A DNA stretch of 64,000 nt from the NCBI GenBank assembly GCA_015057945.1, contig SVDD01000007.1, forward strand, positions 26,830-90,829, read 5' to 3'. The translations under genes and the position numbers were made by a program. Source of the stretch: Lachnospiraceae bacterium (GTDB taxonomy: Bacteria; Bacillota; Clostridia; Lachnospirales; Lachnospiraceae). The notes beneath the pieces were generated by a model. That model was not told the DNA's origin, ran no database searches, and worked only from the letters and a program-made list of their open reading frames with translations. This document shows positions 2,834-63,922 of this stretch, piece by piece. Every line of letters starts with the position of its first letter. The first letter of the stretch is position 1.

Positions 2834-4567
2834 ATGGCTGGAATTTTGGGCGAGCTGGTTGGACCTGCAAAACTGGTTGCTATCTCTATAGGGGAGATTC
2901 CCGAACAGTTTAAAGTAGATGGTGAACTGAAGATAGGCCGGCGACGTTTCTTTAAATTTAAGAATGAAACCAAAATATATCTGGAATATCCTCTTCTTGC
3001 AAAAGATCAGGGTAAGCTGATTCACCTGCTGGGAGAGTGGCATTATATAAATCTGACTGACCAGAATACCACCACCATTGATGATGAGGAACTGCCTCTG
3101 AAGGGAGACAGGATCCTGAAAAACGGAGATATCATAAGGATAAAAAGAGGTTCAGACATGCTTATCTTTGTTTTCCTCATGAAATTCTCCGGAGAACTTG
3201 AATGGAAGAGAGTCTTTCTGGACAGAGAGCAGAAGATCTATCATATCTACAGTCATGTCAGTGAATATGAGAAGGCCGGAGAGAGCTCTGCTTCTTCAGA
3301 TTCCGGAGCAGAAGCGGAGTCTCCGGATAAACCCGGGGCAGAAAAGAATGAAGCTCCGGATCCCGGGGCCCATCATGCCATCTTGCGTTACACTGACGGG
3401 TACTGGCAGGTGGAGGACACCAACACCAAAAGAGGTGTTTACGTAAACCAGAACAGGATAGACGGATATAAGCTTCTGAAGCTTTATGACATCATAAACA
3501 TCGGTAACACACATTTCGTATTCTACGGAGATTATATAGCCTATAATCTGGAGACCTTCAGGGACAATGATCTGGAGATCCACATCAAAGAAAGATCGGT
3601 AAGAGGATTTTTCAAACGTCAGATACTTCTTAAGGATATCAATTTACGGATTGAACCCGGAAATATGGTGCTTATCCTCGGCGGATCAGGTGCCGGAAAG
3701 ACCACCTTTATCAATGCCGTGACCGGCTATGAAAAGGCCAATGCCGCTATCCGGCAGGGCGACGTGGATGTTTATGACGACTACGAAAAAATGAAATACA
3801 GGATAGGCATGGTTCCGCAGCAGGATCTACTTCGTGGTGACGATACCGTCATCATGACTCTTTCCAATGCTGCGGAAATGCGTATGCCTACCACTTCCGA
3901 TCTTAATGAGAGGAAAGAACGGGTAAACGAACTTCTGCGTCTTTTCGGTCTTGAAAACGTAAGAGGCGAGCTGGTGGATAAGCTTTCAGGCGGACAGCGT
4001 AAACGTCTCTCCATCGCAACCGAGTTCGTTGCCAATCCGAGCATCTTCATCCTGGATGAGCCGGATTCCGGTCTCGACGGAGTTATGGCCAGAGATCTTA
4101 TGAAACAGCTTCGCAATATTGCGGATCAGAACAAGATCGTCATGGTCATCACCCACACCCCGGACAGAGTCATTGACATGTTTGACAAGGTCATAGTTCT
4201 TGCAAAGGACAGCAACCAGACCGGACAGCTGGCATTCTACGGAACTGTGGATGAAGCTAAAAAATTTTTCAACCGTGAGACCATGGAAGACATCATACTG
4301 ACGGTAAACAGTGAAGGTGAAGGCGGTGAAGGTCAGGCGGACATATACATCAGAAAATTCCAAAGACTCAGAGAAGAAGTTCCCTTTACTCCTCCCGATA
4401 CTATGGACAACGGGGTAGGAGTCAGGACTTCTGACGGAACCGCTCTTGAACCGGAGAGCATACCGGAGGATCCGATATATGCAGAGAATGATGAGAAGAT
4501 CAGCTCCGAGGATATACTGAAAGGGGATCTTCTGTCCGACGAAAAGGTTGAGGTAGATCTGAACTGA
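2834..4567 (+). CDS. FHA-domain ABC transporter ATP-binding protein (two FHA-like domains plus an ABCG-type ATPase)
   Basis: GGAGG RBS before ATG 2834 (track ORF starts at 2744). FHA-like segments (KIGR..., HHAIL...VEDTNTKRGVYVN), Walker A GGSGAGKT, LSGGQ signature, ILDEPDSGLD, THT switch. Confidence 0.85.
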   Translation: MAGILGELVGPAKLVAISIGEIPEQFKVDGELKIGRRRFFKFKNETKIYLEYPLLAKDQGKLIHLLGEWHYINLTDQNTTTIDDEELPLKGDRILKNGDIIRIKRGSDMLIFVFLMKFSGELEWKRVFLDREQKIYHIYSHVSEYEKAGESSASSDSGAEAESPDKPGAEKNEAPDPGAHHAILRYTDGYWQVEDTNTKRGVYVNQNRIDGYKLLKLYDIINIGNTHFVFYGDYIAYNLETFRDNDLEIHIKERSVRGFFKRQILLKDINLRIEPGNMVLILGGSGAGKTTFINAVTGYEKANAAIRQGDVDVYDDYEKMKYRIGMVPQQDLLRGDDTVIMTLSNAAEMRMPTTSDLNERKERVNELLRLFGLENVRGELVDKLSGGQRKRLSIATEFVANPSIFILDEPDSGLDGVMARDLMKQLRNIADQNKIVMVITHTPDRVIDMFDKVIVLAKDSNQTGQLAFYGTVDEAKKFFNRETMEDIILTVNSEGEGGEGQADIYIRKFQRLREEVPFTPPDTMDNGVGVRTSDGTALEPESIPEDPIYAENDEKISSEDILKGDLLSDEKVEVDLN

Positions 4568-4729
4568 ATCACTTATTTAAAATCTTTCGTTAACCAGTCT
4601 TAAGGCAGTGATTCACTTATATAAAATGAAGTGAGTGTCAAAATATTTTCCACTCACTGATAGCACCAACGCACAGATTCGCGTGCAATGTGCTGCAGAA
4701 CATTTAAACAACAACGAGGCATCAAGAAT

Positions 4730-5665: not shown

Positions 5666-5783
5666 TGGGGCTTATAATGCCATGATTCATGCAGTCTGTA
5701 TCCCGCTTTTGTGCAGGCACAATCGAAGCAAGAGACTTATGGCACTTATATCATACCCTAACCAGATATCCTAAAAGCAAAAT

Positions 5784-16087: not shown

Positions 16088-16158
16088 TGATGTAAGTGTT
16101 ATGAGACTCCGCACACATTTTCAGCCCATATAAGAGAAGCCTTATGACACCTGTATCA
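16088..16158. mobile_element. Miniature degenerate copy of the 182-bp TIR element, with a 5-bp TSD (AATCA)
   Basis: Ends TGATGTAAGTGTTATGAG / CTTATGACACCTGTATCA; AATCA at 16083-87 and 16159-63. Confidence 0.6.
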
Positions 16159-16184: not shown

Positions 16185-17969
16185 ATGAAACTTAAATTCC
16201 CATCAAAAAAACTGATCTTCGCCGCTGTGGTTCTCATAGCCGCAGCAGCCGGAGCTTTCTTTTATCTCACCAAACAGAAAGTCTCTGTTTCATCAGATTC
16301 AAAAGTAAAAACCGGAACCGTTACAAGGCAGACCATCCAGTCCTCTTTATCCAGCTCCGGTACCATCTCACCGAAGAACAGCTACAAAATCACCTCAATG
16401 GTTGATGGAACCATCATCTCGGCAGACTTTCAGGAAGGGGATGTGGTGGAAGAGGGGCAGGTACTTTACCAGATAGATTCCTCCTCCATAAATTCGAAGC
16501 TCAGTTCCGCAAACAGTTCACTGGAGCGTTCAGAGAACAGTTACTCAAGAGCTGTCAGCAATTATGACAAGGCATCCTCGGATTTCAGCGGCAATACCGT
16601 AAAGTCCAAGTATACCGGTCATATAAAATCCATAAATATCTCCATCGGAGATCAGGTAAGCTCAAACACGGAGATCGCAGAGATATACGACGATTCAACC
16701 ATGAAGCTGGATGTACCCTTCCTTTCAGTGGAAGCTGCCATGATACCTGTTGGAACTGCAGCAACCGTAGTTATCGAAGATACGCTTGAAGAGGTCATCG
16801 GAATCGTCACTTCGGTTGACTCAATGGAATCCACCCTTACCGGCGGTCAGCTGGTCAGATACGTGACCATTGAGGTTTCTAATCCCGGCGGTCTTACCAC
16901 AGATATGTCCGCCACCGCCAGCATTAACGGCATGAACTCATCCGGTGACGGTACATTCCAGGCAGCAAGAGACTTCACCATAAAGGCAGACAATCTTACT
17001 TCCTCGGTAACTGTAGAACAGCTTCTGGTAAATGAAGGAGACTATGTGGTAGCAGGACAGGCACTTTTCCTTGCGGATGCCGACGACATTGAAGATATCA
17101 TTTACAACTACAAGGACAAGGTCGACAGCGCAAAGTCCTCAGTTGAGAGCGCTCAGTCCAGTCTCGATTCAACAACAGACACTTTCGAAAATTACACCAT
17201 TACGGCACCTATTTCAGGTACTGTAGTCACAAAGAGCGTAAATGTCGGCGAGAACGTTCAGAACGGTTCCTCAGCCACATCCCTCGCAGTAATATATGAC
17301 CTCACAGAAGTCACCTTCGATATGAACATCGATGAGCTTGATATTTCCGCAGTCAAGGTCGGTCAGTCTGTTGATGTAACGGCAGACGCCTTCGAGGGAG
17401 AGACCTTTAAGGGAACTGTTACAAAGATATCCATGGAGGGAACATCTTCAAACGGTGTTACATATTACCCTGTAACAGTGACCATGACAGATTTCGGAGG
17501 CCTTCTTCCCGGCATGAACGTTGAAGGCGTTATCATCCTTGATGAATCCGAAAACGCTCTTGCGATCCCAGTGGATGCCCTTCAGCGCGGCAACAAGGTA
17601 TATGTTAAGAACAAGGCCGGAGAGACCTATGACAGTTCAGCATCATCCGGTGATTCGGATAAATCCGAAAAAACATCTTTCTCAAGCATACCTGACGGCT
17701 TCCATGAAGTTTCAGTAGAAACAGGCCTGACATCAGACACTTATGTGGAGATCGTTTCCGGGGAACTTGAAGAAGGAGACGAGGTCTATGTTTCCCAGTC
17801 CACCGTAAGCTCTGACGAGAACCCGGGCATGATGATGGGAGGTCCCGGCGGATCAGGTGGTCCGGAAGGCTCAGGCGGCCCCGGCGGCGGATTCAGCGGA
17901 TCAGGTGGCGGAAACCGAAGCGGCGGAAGCGGAAACCGAAGCGGTGGAAGCGGTGGTCCTCCAATGTAA
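16185..17969 (+). CDS. MacA/HlyD-type membrane fusion (adaptor) protein with a Gly-rich tail
   Basis: N-terminal TM, two lipoyl-like segments (ITSMVDGTI...EGDVVEEGQVL; ITAPISGTV...VGENV), coiled coils, GG-rich C-terminus. Confidence 0.85.
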   Translation: MKLKFPSKKLIFAAVVLIAAAAGAFFYLTKQKVSVSSDSKVKTGTVTRQTIQSSLSSSGTISPKNSYKITSMVDGTIISADFQEGDVVEEGQVLYQIDSSSINSKLSSANSSLERSENSYSRAVSNYDKASSDFSGNTVKSKYTGHIKSINISIGDQVSSNTEIAEIYDDSTMKLDVPFLSVEAAMIPVGTAATVVIEDTLEEVIGIVTSVDSMESTLTGGQLVRYVTIEVSNPGGLTTDMSATASINGMNSSGDGTFQAARDFTIKADNLTSSVTVEQLLVNEGDYVVAGQALFLADADDIEDIIYNYKDKVDSAKSSVESAQSSLDSTTDTFENYTITAPISGTVVTKSVNVGENVQNGSSATSLAVIYDLTEVTFDMNIDELDISAVKVGQSVDVTADAFEGETFKGTVTKISMEGTSSNGVTYYPVTVTMTDFGGLLPGMNVEGVIILDESENALAIPVDALQRGNKVYVKNKAGETYDSSASSGDSDKSEKTSFSSIPDGFHEVSVETGLTSDTYVEIVSGELEEGDEVYVSQSTVSSDENPGMMMGGPGGSGGPEGSGGPGGGFSGSGGGNRSGGSGNRSGGSGGPPM

Positions 17970-18066
17970 AGATGTGAGTGTCAAAAGTCGATATCGGGAC
18001 GTGTCATGATTCTTCCGTCACTTTTGTGGAAGCTCAGGTGAAGGTAAGCTTATGACACTTATATCC
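17970..18066 (+). mobile_element. Internally deleted copy (97 bp) of the 182-bp TIR element
   Basis: Both ends present (GATGTGAGTGTCAAAAGTCGATATCGG ... CTTATGACACTTATATC); the central module is missing. Confidence 0.8.
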
Positions 18067-20512: not shown

Positions 20513-20514
20513 AG

Positions 20515-20766
20515 TGCATAAGTCCCTGTCAGGCGGCTATGCAGACTGCAAGTTTACTTGCAAGGATGCATAGGCATCTGACAGGACAACAGAAATCGAG
20601 AAGCAGCGCATCGCGCGGATTCGAGATTTCTGCAGGATTGCGAGAGTGCGAAGCACGAAGCAATCCGTGGGACTTATGCACGTATGCATATTATAAGTCC
20701 CTGTCAGGCGACTATGCAGACTGCAAGTTTACTTGCAAGGATGCATATTATAAGTCCATATCAGGC
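20515..20766. repeat. Inverted-repeat element (TGCATAAGTCCC...GGGACTTATGCA, about 165 bp) followed by a re-duplication of its first ~55 bp
   Basis: TAAGTCCCTGTCAGGCG(G/A)CTATGCAGACTGCAAGTTTACTTGCAAGGATGCATA occurs at about 20519 and 20694. Confidence 0.7.
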
Positions 20767-22392: not shown

Positions 22393-22574
22393 TGACGATA
22401 TAGTAAACCGTCGATATCGGAACGCTTCGCGCTATGCGCTCTCGCGTTCCTCCCACATTCCGCACTCTCAGGCCGATAAATCGTCCCTTCGTGCTCCATG
22501 TGGGGCGTGTCATGAAGTCTGTCTTCCACTTTAGTGCAAGCACAAGTGGAAGAAGACTTATGACACTTATATCA
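22393..22574 (+). mobile_element. Full-length (182 bp) TIR element with a degenerate left end
   Basis: Body nearly identical to 53106-53287; right end ACTTATGACACTTATATCA. Confidence 0.85.
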
Positions 22575-25425: not shown

Positions 25426-25604
25426 TGGCATAAGTGTCATAAGTCCATCCGGCATCTATGCTGGCATAAGTGCCGGATGGACTTAATGACGCGCCCTAAC
25501 ATGGAGCACGGAATGACGCTTTAGCGGCATGGGAGTGCGGAATGTGGGAGGAGCGCGTTAGCACGAAGTGCGAAGCGATCCTATGTCAAAATCGACAAGT
25601 CACT
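25426..25604 (-). mobile_element. Divergent member of the 182-bp element family with compensatory stem changes (end approximate)
   Basis: Shares ATAAGTGTCATAAGTC, CATGGAGCACG and GAGTGCGGAATGTGGGAGGA with the other copies; stems differ in sequence but still pair. Confidence 0.75.
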
Positions 25605-33561: not shown

Positions 33562-33595
33562 ATGTGAGACCGGTCTGAAAGAACGATTAACGATT

Positions 33596-33623
33596 CGATA
33601 TCGGCTTTTTGACACTCACATCA
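33596..33623 (-). repeat. Isolated left end of the 182-bp element
   Basis: CGATATCGGCTTTTTGACACTCACATCA is approximately the reverse complement of the element left end. Confidence 0.65.
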
Positions 33624-33641: not shown

Positions 33642-35234
33642 ATGGACGGAATTATAGTAGTTAAGAAGGAAAAGGATTGGACCAGCTTTGATGTTACAAA
33701 AAAGCTTCGATCCATCCTTCATGAGAAAAAAATAGGCCATACGGGAACACTCGATCCTATGGCAGAAGGTGTTCTGGTAGTCTGCGCAGGCATGGCCACC
33801 AAACTTGTTGATGCCATAGCCGGCACCACAAAAATCTATGAAGCCGAAATGAAGCTGGGCATCACTACAGACACAGAAGACACCACAGGGACCATCCTTG
33901 CGGAGAAGCCTGTGGCGGTTTCGGAAGAAGAGGTAAGAGCTGCCATAGAAAGCTTCATCGGAACTTACGATCAGATCCCTCCCATGTACAGTGCAAAAAA
34001 GATCAACGGAAAAAAGCTTTATGATCTTGCCAGACAGGGAAAGACAGTCGAGCGTAAGCCAAATCCCATAACCATACATGATATAAAGATAAATGAGATC
34101 AGTCTTCCCCATGTAAAGATGGAGGTCACCTGCTCAAAGGGAACCTACATCAGAACCCTTTGTAAGGATATAGGTGAAAAACTCGGAACAGGTGCTGCCA
34201 TGTCAGCGCTTCTCCGTACAAGAGTAGGTCAGTACGGAATCGAGGAAAGTCATACTCTCAGTGAGATATCTGCCATGGCAGAAAAGGGTGAGCTCTTCTC
34301 CATCATGAAGCCGCCTATCTTCATACCGGAACCCACAGTGGTCTCTTTCGGTAAGTTTGACGGAAGCCATCGCGGACATCAGCTCATATTTGAGAATATG
34401 TTCAGGATAGCATCGGAGAAGCACCTTAAAACAGCGGTATTGACCTTCTCCCAGAATCCGGAGAACCTTTTCACCGGAATCAGGAAAACCTCCATCTCAT
34501 CAGGTGACGAACATCTTACCAGACTTCGTAATCTTGGTTTTGATTATGTTTTTTCATATCCGGTGAACAGCGATACCATGAAGGTACCTGCCGAGCATTT
34601 CCTTCGGGATGTGCTTATAGAGGGTATGCACGCAGAAGACATCGTAGTCGGAACCGACTGCAGCTTCGGTCATAAGGCTCAGGGCAATGCCGAAATGCTC
34701 GCCTCACTTCAGGACAGATACGGGTATAAAGCCCACATCATAAAGAAGAGAGAGGTCCTTGATGAAAACGGAAATCCACGTGAGATCTCAAGCACATACA
34801 TAAGAGAAGAGATACAGAAGGGCAATGTAAAGCTCGCGGCTGAGCTTCTGGGACGGCACGTTTCTCTCAGCGGAACCGTTGTATACGGAAAGCAGATAGG
34901 TTCCACCGTACTGGGATTCCCTACCGCAAATCTGATTCCGAAGGAAGGAAAGACGATCCCCAAGGCAGGAGTTTATGTAAGCCGTGTACTCGTAGGTCAA
35001 AAGCTTTACAAAGGCATGACCAATGTAGGTACAAATCCTACGGTATCCGATGGCAATCCTGTGGATGTGGAGACCTTTATCATTGGCTTCAACGGTGATA
35101 TCTACGGAAAGAAGATAAGAGTGGAGTTCATGGACAGACTCAGGGATCAGGAGAAATTCCCATCTCTCGAGGAACTGAAAAAGCAGCTTGAAAGGGATGT
35201 GGAAAAGGCCGCACATTATCCCATGGATCTTTGA
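33642..35234 (+). CDS. truB-ribF: TruB-RibF fusion: tRNA pseudouridine-55 synthase core (no C-terminal domain) fused to riboflavin kinase/FAD synthetase
   Basis: aa 1 to about 225 TruB (GHTGTLDP, PPMYSAKK, SKGTYIR). From about aa 230 RibF (GKFDGSHRGH, ISSTYIRE, GFPTAN, NVGTNPT, LRDQEKF). Single uninterrupted frame of 530 aa. Confidence 0.92.
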   Translation: MDGIIVVKKEKDWTSFDVTKKLRSILHEKKIGHTGTLDPMAEGVLVVCAGMATKLVDAIAGTTKIYEAEMKLGITTDTEDTTGTILAEKPVAVSEEEVRAAIESFIGTYDQIPPMYSAKKINGKKLYDLARQGKTVERKPNPITIHDIKINEISLPHVKMEVTCSKGTYIRTLCKDIGEKLGTGAAMSALLRTRVGQYGIEESHTLSEISAMAEKGELFSIMKPPIFIPEPTVVSFGKFDGSHRGHQLIFENMFRIASEKHLKTAVLTFSQNPENLFTGIRKTSISSGDEHLTRLRNLGFDYVFSYPVNSDTMKVPAEHFLRDVLIEGMHAEDIVVGTDCSFGHKAQGNAEMLASLQDRYGYKAHIIKKREVLDENGNPREISSTYIREEIQKGNVKLAAELLGRHVSLSGTVVYGKQIGSTVLGFPTANLIPKEGKTIPKAGVYVSRVLVGQKLYKGMTNVGTNPTVSDGNPVDVETFIIGFNGDIYGKKIRVEFMDRLRDQEKFPSLEELKKQLERDVEKAAHYPMDL

Positions 35235-52161: not shown

Positions 52162-52531
52162 AAACAGATCCCTTTTTATGTATGTCGCAATGGTCATAAA
52201 GTATCCTCTCATGGCGCAGACACGCTATCAGACACTTTTGTCCCTTACATCTATCATTATAACCAAGATAAACCGTCTAAAATTTACATTTACTCTACAA
52301 TTTAAGCCTTATTTCAGGTTTTTCTGTGAACAGTTACCTTTGGGTTTTCGATTTACCGCGTCACCCGGTGCTCCTATTGGGAAAATACAAGTTTCTTCAT
52401 TCACCTAACTACTTTTCTCCCTTATGTCTTTAGCCTCCATCATCCTGTTTTGTGCTCCTGCGGACAAAAAAAGACCGTACCGGAAAGGTACGATCTTCAA
52501 ATATACATGATTTCTTGATTTAAACTTACTA

Positions 52532-52873: not shown

Positions 52874-53105
52874 ATCAAACTACTCCTTTTGCAAAAAAAT
52901 ATCGCAATTTACGTAATTATTTAATTTCAATACCATTATACATTGTTAAGAAAACATTTCCATAGTATTCTTTCATTTTTCTTTTAATTCGCGTTTTTTA
53001 TAAAGTATTGATTAATTTTTTGTTAAATTTTACACTTGGTCCATGCCAATCAAGATAATAAGATTCATAATGATAAGTGTTATTCATAAAACAGAACTAA
53101 ATAAA

Positions 53106-53287
53106 TGATGTGAGTGTCAAAAGTAGATATCGGACCGCTTCGCGCTATGCGCTCTCGCGTTCCTCCCACATTCCGCACTCTCAGGCCGATAAATCGTCCT
53201 TTCGTGCTCCATGTGGGGCGTGTCATGAAGTCTATCCTCCACTTTTGTGCAAGCACAAGTGGAGGAAGACTTATGACACTTATATCA
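53106..53287 (+). mobile_element. Full-length 182-bp TIR element with a 6-bp TSD (AATAAA)
   Basis: TGATGTGAGTGTCAAAAGT ... ACTTATGACACTTATATCA; AATAAA at 53100-05 and 53288-93. Confidence 0.9.
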
Positions 53288-53373
53288 AATAAATGGTTTA
53301 TAACCAAAATAAAAAATGTGGTTCGATCATTGACAGCGATCTTGTACCATGCTAGTCTAAAACCAACAAGAGA

Positions 53374-53486
53374 ATATTTTCTTCGGGGCAGGGTGTGATT
53401 CCCTACCGGCGGTATAGTCCGCGAGCCTTTGTGCATGAACCGGTGTGATTCCGGTACCGACAGTATAGTCTGGATGAGAGAAGAAA
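53374..53486 (+). ncRNA. FMN riboswitch (RFN element)
   Basis: TCTTCGGGGCAGGGTG..ATTCCCTACCGGCGGTATAG...CCGGTG..ATTCCGGTACCGACAGTATAGTCTGGATGAGAGAAGA; promoter TTGACA-N17-TAGTCT upstream. Confidence 0.95.
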
Positions 53487-53504
53487 CGTAATGACGCGAT
53501 TATT

Positions 53505-53540
53505 TATCTCAGTACCCGAACAGGTACTGAGATTTTTTTA
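53505..53540 (+). terminator. Expression-platform terminator of the FMN riboswitch
   Basis: ATCTCAGTAC-ccgaacag-GTACTGAGAT followed by T7. Confidence 0.85.
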
Positions 53541-53565
53541 TTTCATTGTAAAGGAGAGTAGTATC

Positions 53566-54189
53566 ATGTCAAATAAGATTAATGTTCAGAAGCTGGTTTA
53601 CACAGGACTTCTTACAGCCCTTGCGGGAGTGCTCATGACCTTTGAGTTCAGCATTCCCTTCTTCCCGCCATTTTACAAGATAGACTTCAGTGATGTTCCC
53701 AGTGTCATCGCACTTTTCACCATGGGACCTTTATCCGGACTCTTCGTTGAGATAGCAAAGCTTGTCATCAAACTTATCACTGTGGGAACAAACAGTATGT
53801 ATGTTGGAGAAGTTTCAAACATGCTCGGAGCATTGCTCTTTATATTCCCTCTGTGGTTCCTTTTCAAGAAGACAGGAAAAACAGATAAGGGTATAGCAAT
53901 AGCTCTTATTACGAGCGTTATCATCCGCACAGCATGGATGTGCTTCTGCAATGCTTTTATCACACTTCCTATGTACGCAGCGGCAATGGGCTTAAGCATT
54001 AACGATGTGGTAGTTATGGTTTCCTCAGTTAACCCGATGATCAAGGATCTTCCTACATTCATCATCCTTGCTACCATTCCTTTCAACCTTATCAAGTTAT
54101 GTCTTGTATATGCACTTTCGTTTGTGCTTTTCTCAAGACTCAGAGTTTCCGTTCCCGGATTTCGGGCAATGAAGACAACCAATGTGTGA
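53566..54189 (+). CDS. ribU: ECF transporter S component, probably riboflavin-specific (RibU)
   Basis: FYKIDFSDVP, GEVSN and PFNLIK S-component motifs; directly under the FMN riboswitch; AAGGAG RBS before ATG 53566. Confidence 0.85.
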   Translation: MSNKINVQKLVYTGLLTALAGVLMTFEFSIPFFPPFYKIDFSDVPSVIALFTMGPLSGLFVEIAKLVIKLITVGTNSMYVGEVSNMLGALLFIFPLWFLFKKTGKTDKGIAIALITSVIIRTAWMCFCNAFITLPMYAAAMGLSINDVVVMVSSVNPMIKDLPTFIILATIPFNLIKLCLVYALSFVLFSRLRVSVPGFRAMKTTNV

Positions 54190-54372: not shown

Positions 54373-54447
54373 CGGGGTGTGGCTCAGTTTGGCTAGAGCG
54401 CTTGGTTAGGGACCAAGAGATCGTGGGTTCAAATCCCGTCACTCCGA
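54373..54447 (+). tRNA. tRNA-Pro with anticodon AGG (A34)
   Basis: Complete cloverleaf: acceptor CGGGGTG/CACTCCG + A73, anticodon arm CTTGG-TTAGGGA-CCAAG (AGG at 54408-10), T loop TTCAAAT; CCA not encoded. Confidence 0.92.
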
Positions 54448-54681
54448 TGAACAGTGAAAGACGAAGGCCTAAAGTGATCGGGCTTTCGTCTTTTTTTCTT
54501 ATAAATCAATTAGTTATCATTGTTCTCATAGACTTATATCAACTCATGGTATATGATAGCGGAATTTAAAAATACACTTCACGGCAGCATAGCTCAACAC
54601 TTATTTTTCAAAAAAGTGTTGACAAGAATCATGAATTTATGTAATATACAACGGTCGCTTGAAACGGGCGGCGAAATAGTC

Positions 54682-54756
54682 CGGGGTGTGGCTCAGTTTG
54701 GCTAGAGCACCTGGTTTGGGACCAGGGGGTCGCAGGTTCGAATCCTGTCACCCCGA
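54682..54756 (+). tRNA. tRNA-Pro(TGG)
   Basis: CCTGG-TTTGGGA-CCAGG anticodon arm; own promoter TTGACA (54619-24)-N17-TAATAT. Confidence 0.97.
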
Positions 54757-54967
54757 CGATGAGAGAGTGGGAATCCTTGTTTTAAAGGGTTCCTTTTTTT
54801 ATTTTTCATTCTGGTAGCGCCAGGTGATGCCGGTTTTTTTAACATCAATTTCCCATCATACGCATACGCGCATACGCTGAAATAATGATAAAATAAAAAA
54901 GCATTGACAAAAAGAGACTCTGGATTATATAATATGTAAGCTGTCTGAGACGGACAGCAAAAAAGCT

Positions 54968-55042
54968 CGGGGTGTGGCTCAGTTTGGCTAGAGCACCTGG
55001 TTTGGGACCAGGGGGTCGCAGGTTCGAATCCTGTCACCCCGA
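54968..55042 (+). tRNA. tRNA-Pro(TGG), identical second copy
   Basis: Identical to 54682-54756; own promoter TTGACA (54904-09)-N18-TATAAT. Confidence 0.97.
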
Positions 55043-56328: not shown

Positions 56329-56510
56329 TGATATAAGTGTCATAAGTCTTCCTCCACTTGTGCTTGCACAAAAGTGGAGGATAGACTTCATGACACGCCC
56401 CACATGGAGCACGAAAGGGCGATTTATCGGCCTGAGAGTGCGGAATGTGGGAGGAACGCGAGAGCGCATAGCGCGAAGTGGTCCGATATCGACTTTTGAC
56501 ACTAACATCT
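56329..56510 (-). mobile_element. Full-length 182-bp TIR element, inverted orientation
   Basis: Near-exact reverse complement of 53106-53287; no TSD seen. Confidence 0.9.
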
Positions 56511-58116: not shown

Positions 58117-58134
58117 AAAGGATGTAGTATAATA

Positions 58135-58316
58135 TGATATAAGTGTCATAAGTCTTCCTCCACTTGTGCTTGCACAAAAGTGGAGGATAGACTTCATGAC
58201 ACGCCCCACATGGAGCACGAAAGGACGATTTATCGGCCTGAGAGTGCGGAATGTGGGAGGAACGCGAGAGCGCCTAGCGCGAAGCGGTCCTATATCGACT
58301 TTTGACACTAACATCA
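58135..58316 (-). mobile_element. Full-length 182-bp TIR element with a 5-bp TSD (TAATA), abutting the yjfB-like start codon
   Basis: TAATA at 58130-34 and 58317-21; the right TSD overlaps the A of ATG 58321. Confidence 0.9.
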
Positions 58317-58320
58317 TAAT

Positions 58321-58509
58321 ATGGATATTATTTCAAGCATTTCCACAGTTGCGGCTAATTACTCCATGCAGAAGGTGGCCACTGCCATAGGCACAGCCAT
58401 TTTTTCAAAGGTATTGGATCAGGCCGAAACAGGCGGAGCTGACATGATAAAGCTCCTTGAGCAGTCGGCCAATCCCGATTTAGGCGCCAATTTTGATGCC
58501 CTCGCATAA
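58321..58509 (+). CDS. YjfB-family small protein (putative motility protein)
   Basis: MDIISSIST...SKVLDQAE...M.KLLEQS.NPDLGANFD pattern. Confidence 0.75.
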   Translation: MDIISSISTVAANYSMQKVATAIGTAIFSKVLDQAETGGADMIKLLEQSANPDLGANFDALA

Positions 58510-63009: not shown

Positions 63010-63819
63010 ATGAATATTTCTATATACAACGATTGGGATCATATCCCTAAATACACGGCGGAAGGACAGGATGAAGCAGTACTGTCCTTTGACGGTGAGT
63101 ACAGAAAGGGAGATGTGATACATATTTACGGCCTTGAGCCCGGAAGATTCTATGTCATGCAGCTTGATGCCGTACTGACCCCGTCAGTGGTTTACATAAC
63201 CAAAGAGGAGCTTCTTTATCCGATTCCCTTTTATGAGAAGAAGGAGAACCTTAATCCCCTTACCTTCTACGGAAACCGCCATGTAGTACGCATCAGAAAA
63301 GCAGAAAAACATGAGGTCATGATATACAGAAATCTCTCGGAGAACAGCTTTGATCCCCATGACGATACAGGTGTATATCCCCATGCCAGCGCCAACATCG
63401 AAACCCGCGGCGAATCTGTTTTTGCTGCCGCCAATGCCATAAACGGAAACATTGCCCACGGCTCCCACGGAGAGTGGCCCTACGAATCCTGGGGTATAAA
63501 CTGCAGAGATGACGCAGAGTTCCGTCTTGATTTCGGCCGTCCCGTAAACATCCGGGAAATCCGTATATATGAGCGCTGCGACTTTCCTCATGACAACTGG
63601 TGGACAGAGGGAACCGTCAGCTTTTCAAACGGAAAAAGGGAGATACTCAAGCTTGAAAAGCGGGAGGACGGAAGCGCTCAGAGATTTATGATAACAGAGG
63701 ACAATGTCACATGGCTCACTCTGGGAAACCTTATCAAGTCACAGGACCCAAGTCCATTCCCGGCACTTACCCAGATACAGGTGTTCGGAACGGAGGCATC
63801 CGGGACTGAATGGCGTTAA
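63010..63819 (+). CDS. Putative carbohydrate-binding protein (galactose-binding/F5-8-like C-terminal fold)
   Basis: FAAANAING, FRLDFGRPVNIREIRIY, ALTQIQVFG beta-sandwich pattern; GGAGG RBS. Confidence 0.6.
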   Translation: MNISIYNDWDHIPKYTAEGQDEAVLSFDGEYRKGDVIHIYGLEPGRFYVMQLDAVLTPSVVYITKEELLYPIPFYEKKENLNPLTFYGNRHVVRIRKAEKHEVMIYRNLSENSFDPHDDTGVYPHASANIETRGESVFAAANAINGNIAHGSHGEWPYESWGINCRDDAEFRLDFGRPVNIREIRIYERCDFPHDNWWTEGTVSFSNGKREILKLEKREDGSAQRFMITEDNVTWLTLGNLIKSQDPSPFPALTQIQVFGTEASGTEWR

Positions 63820-63878
63820 GCATCTAACCCACTTTTGTGCGAGCACAAGTGGGTGAGATACTTATGACACTTATATCA
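63820..63878 (+). mobile_element. Right-hand fragment of the 182-bp element
   Basis: CCACTTTTGTGC.AGCACAAGTGG...ACTTATGACACTTATATCA. Confidence 0.8.
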
Positions 63879-63922
63879 TATATAACTTAATCAAAGAAAA
63901 CCGACTTTACATAGGAGCTGTT

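Follow-up and report, generated by a model that had tools for sequence, protein, structure and literature searches.

The Clostridiales-1 RNA motif of Lachnospiraceae is the body of a miniature inverted-repeat transposable element with a probable IS1182-like partner

The Clostridiales-1 RNA motif was first described, with function unknown, by Weinberg et al. (2010, Genome Biol 11:R31; PMC2864571), who reported a 'large four-stem structure ... very common in human gut'. In the passages of that paper that treat the motif, it is not associated with particular downstream genes and, unlike a neighbouring motif, carries no repeat-element flag; the portions of text and supplement available to us do not mention terminal repeats, target duplications, empty sites or a cognate insertion sequence (IS). 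The same four features go unmentioned in the titles, abstracts and one passage of the other literature naming the motif, none of which is mechanistic, and no literature was found that links Clostridiales-1, or miniature inverted-repeat transposable elements (MITEs) of Lachnospiraceae, to a transposon. Rfam lists the motif as RF01699 and types it as Gene; sRNA. In the present work, we analysed a 64,000-nucleotide (nt) stretch of a Lachnospiraceae genome (contig SVDD01000007.1, positions 26,830 to 90,829; the whole stretch is hereafter called the window), and in particular a structured repeat at 25426-25604 that a preliminary description had regarded as part of a possibly undescribed system unless it matched a known family. 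When the window was scanned against Rfam 15 at gathering thresholds, six full-length RF01699 matches with scores of 92-113 bits were obtained, all of which span model positions 1-166. The repeat itself matched at 25426-25588 (+) with 92 bits, compared with a gathering score of 48, and the five other copies scored 100.5-113 bits; the system is thus not an undescribed one. We are highly confident that the 25426 repeat belongs to this already described family and is also the body of a MITE.

The fold of the repeat was examined first by comparing the 25426 copy with the copy at 56329, and all the strings quoted in the preliminary description were recovered from the sequence at 25426-25604 and 56329-56500. 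Hairpin A reads AAGTC-CATCCGGCA...TGCCGGATG-GACTT at 25426 and AAGTC-TTCCTCCACT...AGTGGAGGA-TA-GACTT at 56329; the inner stem reads ATGACGC-TTTA-GCGGCAT and AGGGCGA-TTTA-TCGGCCT, and the small stem GCAC-GAA-GTGC and GCGC-ATA-GCGC, respectively. Every stem showed compensatory differences between these two copies, and the segment GAGTGCGGAATGTGGGAGGA was identical in five window copies (0 expected). RNAalifold analysis of the five subfamily-I copies of the window gave a closing stem (P1) and hairpins A, B and C, with 58 pairs in total. Nine of these pairs carried a double compensatory change, by which the 25426 copy departs from the other subfamily-I copies with pairing preserved. In the second subfamily (the copy at 20513-20683 and many loci with TAAGCTC...AGCTTA), the inverted repeats serve directly as P1.

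When a collection holding one genome per species was scanned with a hairpin C pattern, at least 116 blocks were found. Among the matches listed, nearly all carriers were titled Lachnospiraceae (Muricomes, Bilifractor, Butyrivibrio, Oribacterium, Lachnoanaerobaculum, Blautia, Agathobacter, Roseburia, Hungatella and others). When the five window copies were used to build a covariance model, it gave 106 matches in the window and in 99 of the at least 116 listed loci, and 105 distinct copies, representing many Lachnospiraceae, were used for the covariation alignment. Standard pairs occupied 93.3% of the alignment cells, compared with 29-46% after pairing partners were slid by 1-3 columns. Moreover, changes on both sides were found in 55 of the 58 pairs, and none of 500 shuffles reached the observed values. 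This alignment is a fit to the model, and two helices of hairpin C were partly constrained by the pattern used for collection; the remaining six helices, which are free of that bias, all covary. The bases of the junction and internal loops are constant while the stems vary. These combined data show that the four-stem fold has been maintained by compensatory substitution across species, and they bear out what the preliminary description had proposed for the multi-hairpin structure. The loop of hairpin A is mostly GCUUGC, which we take to be a CUUG tetraloop closed by a G-C pair, and at the base of hairpin A the terminal-repeat core pairs with its own inverted copy inside the element. For the copy at 58136-58315, the folding energy was -79.5 kcal/mol (z -8.1). 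Whether treated as RNA or as DNA, each strand folded far more stably than shuffled sequences (z -8.7 for the DNA fold), and fold energies discriminated neither RNA from DNA nor one strand from the other.

Comparison of copies with their flanks placed the limits of the element at GATAYA/C... and ...ACATC; it starts with GATATAAGTGTCATAAGTC and ends with GACTTTTGACACT(A/C)ACATC, 19-25 nt past the Rfam model. The ends form 19-bp imperfect terminal inverted repeats (GATATAAGTGTCATAAGTC / GACTTTTGACACTAACATC; 16 of 19 bases match) with the core GTGTCA(A/T)AAGTC, and equivalents are present in other subfamilies. The element is about 180 bp long, non-coding and multi-copy, and its insertion sites are AT-rich. 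In other species, the layout is an AT-rich 7-8-mer followed by GATAYCAGGGTCAAAAGG, the four stems, CCTTTTGACCCCAACATC and the same 7-8-mer. Exact direct repeats of 7-8 bp flanked 9 of 16 distinct two-ended elements, and repeats with at most one mismatch flanked 13 of 16; for mismatched control pairs, the corresponding values were 5% and 16%.

Strain comparisons showed that the copies come and go. At 53107-53286, runs X11, X12 and X15 carried an empty allele (...GAACA-AAATAAAT-GGTTT) with a single 8-mer. This was the only clean empty site; alleles at 22412, 25426 and 56329 had extra or rearranged bases or a deletion remnant. Copy 56330-56509 was missing in run X10, with 9 nt in its place, and copy 22412-22574 was missing in L003-L005 as well as in X10, X12 and X15. 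Related strains had a 48-nt deletion remnant at the 25426 site, and X10 and X12 had 10 nt instead of the partial copy at 20697-20760. The 95-bp short form at 17971-18065 was also found as a variant in X11 contigs. At 63821-63883, different alleles held different fragments, with the left repeat and hairpin A (minus) in this strain and a right-end remnant, GAGTCCGATATAAACTTTTGACAC (plus), in X10, X11 and X12. Word depth in isolate run X12, which is the closest to the window, was 390-1040 on the element and about 15 on unique flanks (a ratio of 27-71x), and the element is present in roughly 30-70 copies per genome, differing between strains.

Subfamilies from human gut (metagenome contigs L123-L239) shared the same right end and comprised full elements of about 194 or 245 bp, the longer ones having more inserted sequence within hairpin B when aligned to the model, together with a recurrent 69-bp mini form. 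Searches with the whole element gave no match among PLSDB plasmids and GenBank phages. A terminal-repeat query against plasmids and phages matched nothing but a remnant of 31 nt, which lies on a plasmid of Agathobacter rectalis and has no adjoining transposase, and the hairpin C pattern had 0 matches among IMG/VR viral contigs. In the Clostridiales-1 motif we therefore recognise the body of a MITE of about 180 bp, a DNA transposon that is not autonomous and has spread through Lachnospiraceae; this MITE nature is new here, the motif itself being already known. The data also support the earlier suggestions that the body is under selection for its fold, that the family is mobile and that its build is modular. 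Module A had been thought to survive alone at two places. That holds for 63822-63877, a truncated 5' end with hairpin A, and fails for 17971-18065, where both ends are retained and part of the interior is deleted.

No transposase was encoded by the 20 window open reading frames (ORFs) scanned or by the genes called on the matching contig L001; nor did the listed loci (at least 116) contain pairs of IS-like ends 0.7-4 kb apart. Metagenome contigs were then scanned for the right-end repeat, with the three preceding bases required to differ from those of the MITE. Most matches were other MITE subfamilies. Contig L209, however, contained a 1,840-bp IS (2854-4693) with the arrangement ATGAATT, GGTGTGGGTGTCAAATGCATGG, transposase, GACTTTTGACACTCACATC, ATGAATT, which combines a 7-bp duplication with the right end of the MITE; its left end, read inward from ATGAATT, is GGTGTGGGTGTCAAATG. 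Pfam domains DUF772 and DDE_Tnp_1_6 were recognised in the transposase, for which IS1182 is the top-scoring NCBIfam model. The gene has a frameshift near its 5' end and two in-frame TAG stops, and this copy of the IS is most likely dead. IS256 and ISL3 had also been considered as partners, a guess from duplication length and end sequences; no IS256-type motif was found in 850 kb of loci, and these candidates were given up after the IS1182-like IS was found.

A search with the read-through L209 protein gave 1592 relatives at E<=1e-10; most of them are intact, 533-534 aa long and encoded on contigs of about 1.8-2 kb. In relatives fetched by protein identity alone, without any selection by DNA pattern, the IS ends read GATGTG[GT]GTGTCAAAAGT ... 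ACTTTTGACAC[ACT]CACATC. In gut metagenomes (L209 and L240-L252), the ISs are 1.84-1.87 kb long, with terminal inverted repeats and 7-bp duplications. The right end of the IS on L246, CGACTTTTGACACTCACATC, is identical at 20 of 20 bases to the right end of the window copy 17971-18065. Moreover, the repeat core and its inverted copy form a small hairpin at the IS ends, the same arrangement as at the base of MITE hairpin A. The intact proteins have the IS1182 model NF033551 as their best match, covering positions 20-487 of 488, and on L240 and L241 the IS and a truncated MITE lie 700 bp apart on one contig. The covariance model found no match inside the partner IS, and hairpins B and C and stem P1 are therefore specific to the MITE. 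Taken together, these sequence comparisons suggest that an IS1182-like DDE transposase is the partner of the MITE and probably its mobiliser in trans. As a separate observation, L240 1379-3833 (and likewise L241) contains an IS left end, a gene for a nitroreductase and, in inverted orientation, a truncated Clostridiales-1 MITE, with the 7-mer ATGATAT on both outer sides; the inner IS right end is degenerate (CACATT). This array could be a composite transposon with a passenger gene, or a coincidence of preferred target.

The orientation of copies relative to genes was also determined. Among copies between co-directional genes, 33 were sense and 8 antisense (binomial p = 1e-4), and about half of the sense copies begin within about 20 nt of the upstream stop codon. 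When a shorter ORF cut-off (85 aa) was used and another 16 copies were included, the sense:antisense counts were 30:9 for intact copies and 3:8 for truncated copies and solo ends (Fisher p = 0.004). Within the window, 5 of 6 intact copies are sense to a neighbour gene, and the truncated ones that could be classified are mostly antisense (five, versus one or two sense). Mismatches on the modelled strand were likewise asymmetric, with 135 G·T and 71 A·C (p = 1e-5). With respect to transcription, RNA contigs from faecal metatranscriptomes extend from neighbour genes into copies 56330 and 58136, those at 58136-58315 running in from the upstream gene. No RNA contig covered the unique copy 25426, which lies behind a terminator; its upstream gene was covered. 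The element/flank ratio of word depth in RNA was 11-45x, no higher than the DNA ratio given above, and the element contains no terminator-like site. The right repeat supplies a perfect TTGACA, which together with the AT-rich flank makes an 11/12 promoter-like site at 58302-58331 (+), pointing outward to the downstream gene; this site is another possible source of orientation-dependent effects.

Given the sense bias, the contrast between intact and truncated copies, the G·T excess, the transcription and the loop sequence, selection on the sense strand as RNA fits, and as between RNA and single-stranded DNA (ssDNA), a choice that the preliminary description had not made, the evidence leans to RNA. 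In the explanation that we favour, the element would have no promoter of its own and would be co-transcribed in the untranslated regions of neighbour genes, where its compact, stable fold may allow sense insertions to do no harm or even to be of use, perhaps in protecting or processing 3' ends. Copies in sense orientation would remain intact and seed new copies while antisense copies decay, and the IS1182-like transposase would move the element in trans, with 7-8-bp duplications at AT-rich sites. As a whole (an RF01699 MITE, an IS1182-like partner and a fold at the RNA level), we consider this explanation likely; that the fold acts at the RNA level on the modelled strand is a more tentative proposal, to which we would give not quite an even chance.

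A number of observations weigh against this explanation. The partner proteins score 118-133 bits against NF033551, under the curated cut-off of 270 bits, and we therefore call the partner 'IS1182-like'. No MITE was found within 10 kb of other IS copies, and no IS with at least 80% identity to the L209 IS was found in run X12; for the genome of the window itself, the partner is therefore a presumed one. The left repeat of the MITE agrees with the IS left end at just about 13 of 19 bases. G·T makes up only 2.7% of cells, a low share of G·U for an RNA; the RNA runs consist of unstranded contigs; and ten further unique loci of a human-gut subfamily (about 3 sense, 2-3 antisense) showed no clear bias. 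Furthermore, a top strand that folds as lagging-strand-template DNA would likewise produce the sense bias and the G·T excess, since genes in these bacteria mostly run in the direction of replication. GC skew, taken in 8-kb blocks to indicate that direction, tracked the coding strand and was uninformative, and copies between minority-orientation genes, which would separate transcription from replication, gave 3 informative cases only. Finally, the 69-bp and 95-bp forms have the same ends, so that the fold is dispensable for the existence of the element, and the decay and deletion of copies between strains argue against a host function of each copy.

This decay of copies, together with the logic of selfish elements, gives real weight to the idea that the fold serves transposition itself. 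As ssDNA or an extruded cruciform, the closing stem and four-way junction would juxtapose the terminal repeats of this very short and stiff element for a DDE transposase, and lineages without the fold would stop spreading; a selfish multi-copy element is expected to conserve what its transposition needs while individual copies decay or are deleted. In the closing stem, bases 2-6 of the left repeat do pair with those that immediately precede the right repeat, Watson-Crick pairs dominate, with the low share of G·T noted above, and folding is no less exceptional for DNA than for RNA. Small hairpins made from inverted core copies occur at the IS ends as well, the sense bias is compatible with a lagging-strand template, and hairpin C has triloops of the C-GNA-G type and a GCGAAGC string, which are known as very stable DNA mini-hairpins. 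The fold-less 69-bp and 95-bp forms with shared ends nevertheless count against this idea, the excess of G·T over A·C speaks against a symmetric cruciform, and the antisense enrichment of truncated copies points to selection after insertion. Intact copies of the window lie on both strands while its genes run nearly all in one direction, the copy at 53107-53286 (-) being sense to a minus-strand neighbour, and we know of no DDE transposase that requires such a structure. We regard a role of the folded DNA in transposition as possible, if rather unlikely. It is also conceivable, if unlikely, that the four-stem module is a nucleic-acid cofactor of the IS1182-like DDE transposase, either as ssDNA that pairs the ends or as RNA that recruits or regulates the transposase. 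If true, this would explain the covariation of the MITE body across all Lachnospiraceae; to our knowledge, no requirement for a structured nucleic acid exists among DDE insertion sequences.

Could the repeat instead be an independent trans-acting small-RNA gene that has a promoter and a terminator of its own and for which the repeats and duplications are incidental? The Rfam type, the strong covariation and, in the published passages on the motif, the lack of a tie to particular downstream genes (PMC2864571) would agree with such a gene. The flanks, however, differ wholly right up to the terminal repeats, so that the copies share no promoter, and the element is without a terminator-like site. 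The unique copy 25426 lacked RNA coverage where its upstream gene had it, depth in RNA did not exceed depth in DNA, and a gene of this kind would have to exist in tens of copies per genome, many truncated and strain-variable; we judge this very improbable. Another possibility is a fold without function, left over from a palindromic MITE origin and kept palindromic by intra-strand template switching or gene conversion between arms. In its favour, hairpin A has at its base nothing more than the terminal-repeat core with an inverted copy; MITEs are often foldback elements, and hairpin-templated repair can alter both arms at once. It accounts poorly for three separate hairpins and a closing stem, for loops and junctions that are conserved when all stems change (55 of 58 pairs covary across species-level divergence), and for the strand asymmetry of mismatches and the orientation bias, which are unexpected for a neutral palindrome. 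We find it improbable. The preliminary description had itself raised a REP/RAYT- or IS200/IS605-like HUH system acting on the folded strand, or a guide RNA of TnpB or IscB. Intergenic multi-hairpin repeats with an orientation bias of the IS200/IS605 kind are indeed what such systems show, whereas HUH elements make neither terminal inverted repeats nor target duplications, both of which (the latter 7-8 bp long) are present here, with ends that match an IS of the DDE-transposase type. The window ORFs scanned and the genes called on contig L001 included no gene for HUH, TnpB or IscB, none adjoined any copy examined, and no omega-RNA-type or guide-RNA family of Rfam matched the window. Transposon guide RNAs lie beside a nuclease or recombinase gene at an IS end; the copies here are solitary and intergenic, with no covariance-model match in the IS. 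We consider this possibility scarcely credible.

Copies and fragments of the element in the window are compiled in the table.

Copies and fragments of the Clostridiales-1 MITE in the window, with matches from the Rfam 15 scan
Feature	Positions	Strand	RF01699 match	Score (bits)	Remarks
5'-end fragment	5700-5752	-			5' terminal repeat (one mismatch) and degenerate hairpin A
69-bp mini form	16089-16157	-			Two terminal repeats, about 30 nt between
95-bp internally deleted form	17971-18065	-			Both terminal repeats and hairpin A, without B and C
Full copy, second subfamily	20513-20683	+	20519-20676 (+)	100.5	Terminal repeats AGTGCATAAGTCCC / GGGACTTATGCAC themselves form the closing stem
Partial copy, second subfamily	20697-20760	+			Directly downstream of the 20513-20683 copy
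Full four-stem copy	22412-22574	-	22412-22574 (-)		3' terminal repeat lost; antisense to both neighbour genes
Divergent full copy (the repeat studied here)	25426-25604	+	25426-25588 (+)	92	3' terminal repeat degenerate; between a terminator and an SNF-transporter gene
3'-end remnant	33590-33622	+			GATATCGGCTTTTTGACACTCACATC
3' terminal repeat remnant, weak	52235-52251	+			
Full copy	53107-53286	-	53125-53287 (-)		8-bp target duplication AAATAAAT at 53099-53106 and 53287-53294
Full copy, both terminal repeats	56330-56509	+	56329-56491 (+)		GATATAAGTGTCATAAGTC ... GACTTTTGACACTAACATC; comparison copy of the preliminary description
Full copy	58136-58315	+	58135-58297 (+)		7-bp direct repeat ATAATAT at 58129-58135 and 58316-58322
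5'-end fragment	63822-63877	-			5' terminal repeat and hairpin A; abuts the stop codon of ORF 63010-63819

Several other features of the window were noted. An FMN riboswitch (53375-53489, +; 115 bits) lies upstream of the ORF 53491-54189, about 90 nt from the MITE copy 53107-53286 and on the other strand, and is followed after that ORF by three tRNA genes at 54373-55042 (+). The ORF 16185-17969 ends (17850-17969) in repeats rich in Gly, Ser, Asn and Arg, with a 9-nt indel at 17937 in an isolate run, and in-frame indels of 27 nt (23337) and 12 nt (23343) were seen inside an ArsP_2 permease gene. At 33642-35234 (+), a single ORF of 530 aa contains TruB_N/TruB_C_2 followed by FAD_syn and Flavokinase, such that truB and ribF, which are usually separate neighbours, are apparently fused in one frame.

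For the annotation of the window alone, the match to a known Rfam family is an ordinary finding. Clostridiales-1 had, however, been an orphan motif since 2010 though very common in human gut DNA, and it now appears as cargo carried by a transposon whose transposase family can be identified, an identity that makes the question of its function experimentally approachable. Counts of the RF01699 'sRNA' in metagenomes and metatranscriptomes, as in a disease-association preprint, would accordingly reflect transposon copy number and strain content, with no regulated RNA gene behind them. The element is also a rare case of a MITE whose interior, besides its ends, is under long-term structural selection.

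In comparison with described systems, the window copies all pass the RF01699 threshold and have the four stems, covarying pairs, host taxon (Clostridiales) and gut habitat of that family; the difference is that in one subfamily the element reaches 19-25 nt past the 3' end of the Rfam model. The partner resembles the IS1182 family in its DUF772 and DDE_Tnp_1/DDE_Tnp_1_6 domains, its full-model NCBIfam match, its length and its terminal inverted repeats, and departs from it in score, which makes it a distant relative by sequence and an uncertified member. Among short repeats, Correia (Neisseria), ERIC/IRU (enterobacteria) and BOX, RUP and SPRITE (Streptococcus pneumoniae) are likewise short, non-coding, intergenic and multi-copy. 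These elements have terminal repeats, are co-transcribed with their neighbours and have predicted folds; Correia and RUP make target duplications, and BOX is modular. They fold mainly as one long foldback hairpin, in contrast to the closing stem and three hairpins found here, with conserved loops and family-wide covariation, and RUP has a partner of the IS630 type where the present element has an IS1182-like one. REP/REPIN-RAYT systems and the IS200/IS605-derived PATEs share with the Clostridiales-1 element the structured intergenic repeat, the fold of one strand and the orientation bias, but they have no terminal inverted repeats, make no target duplication and depend on an HUH Y1 transposase, and on all three counts the element described here is different.

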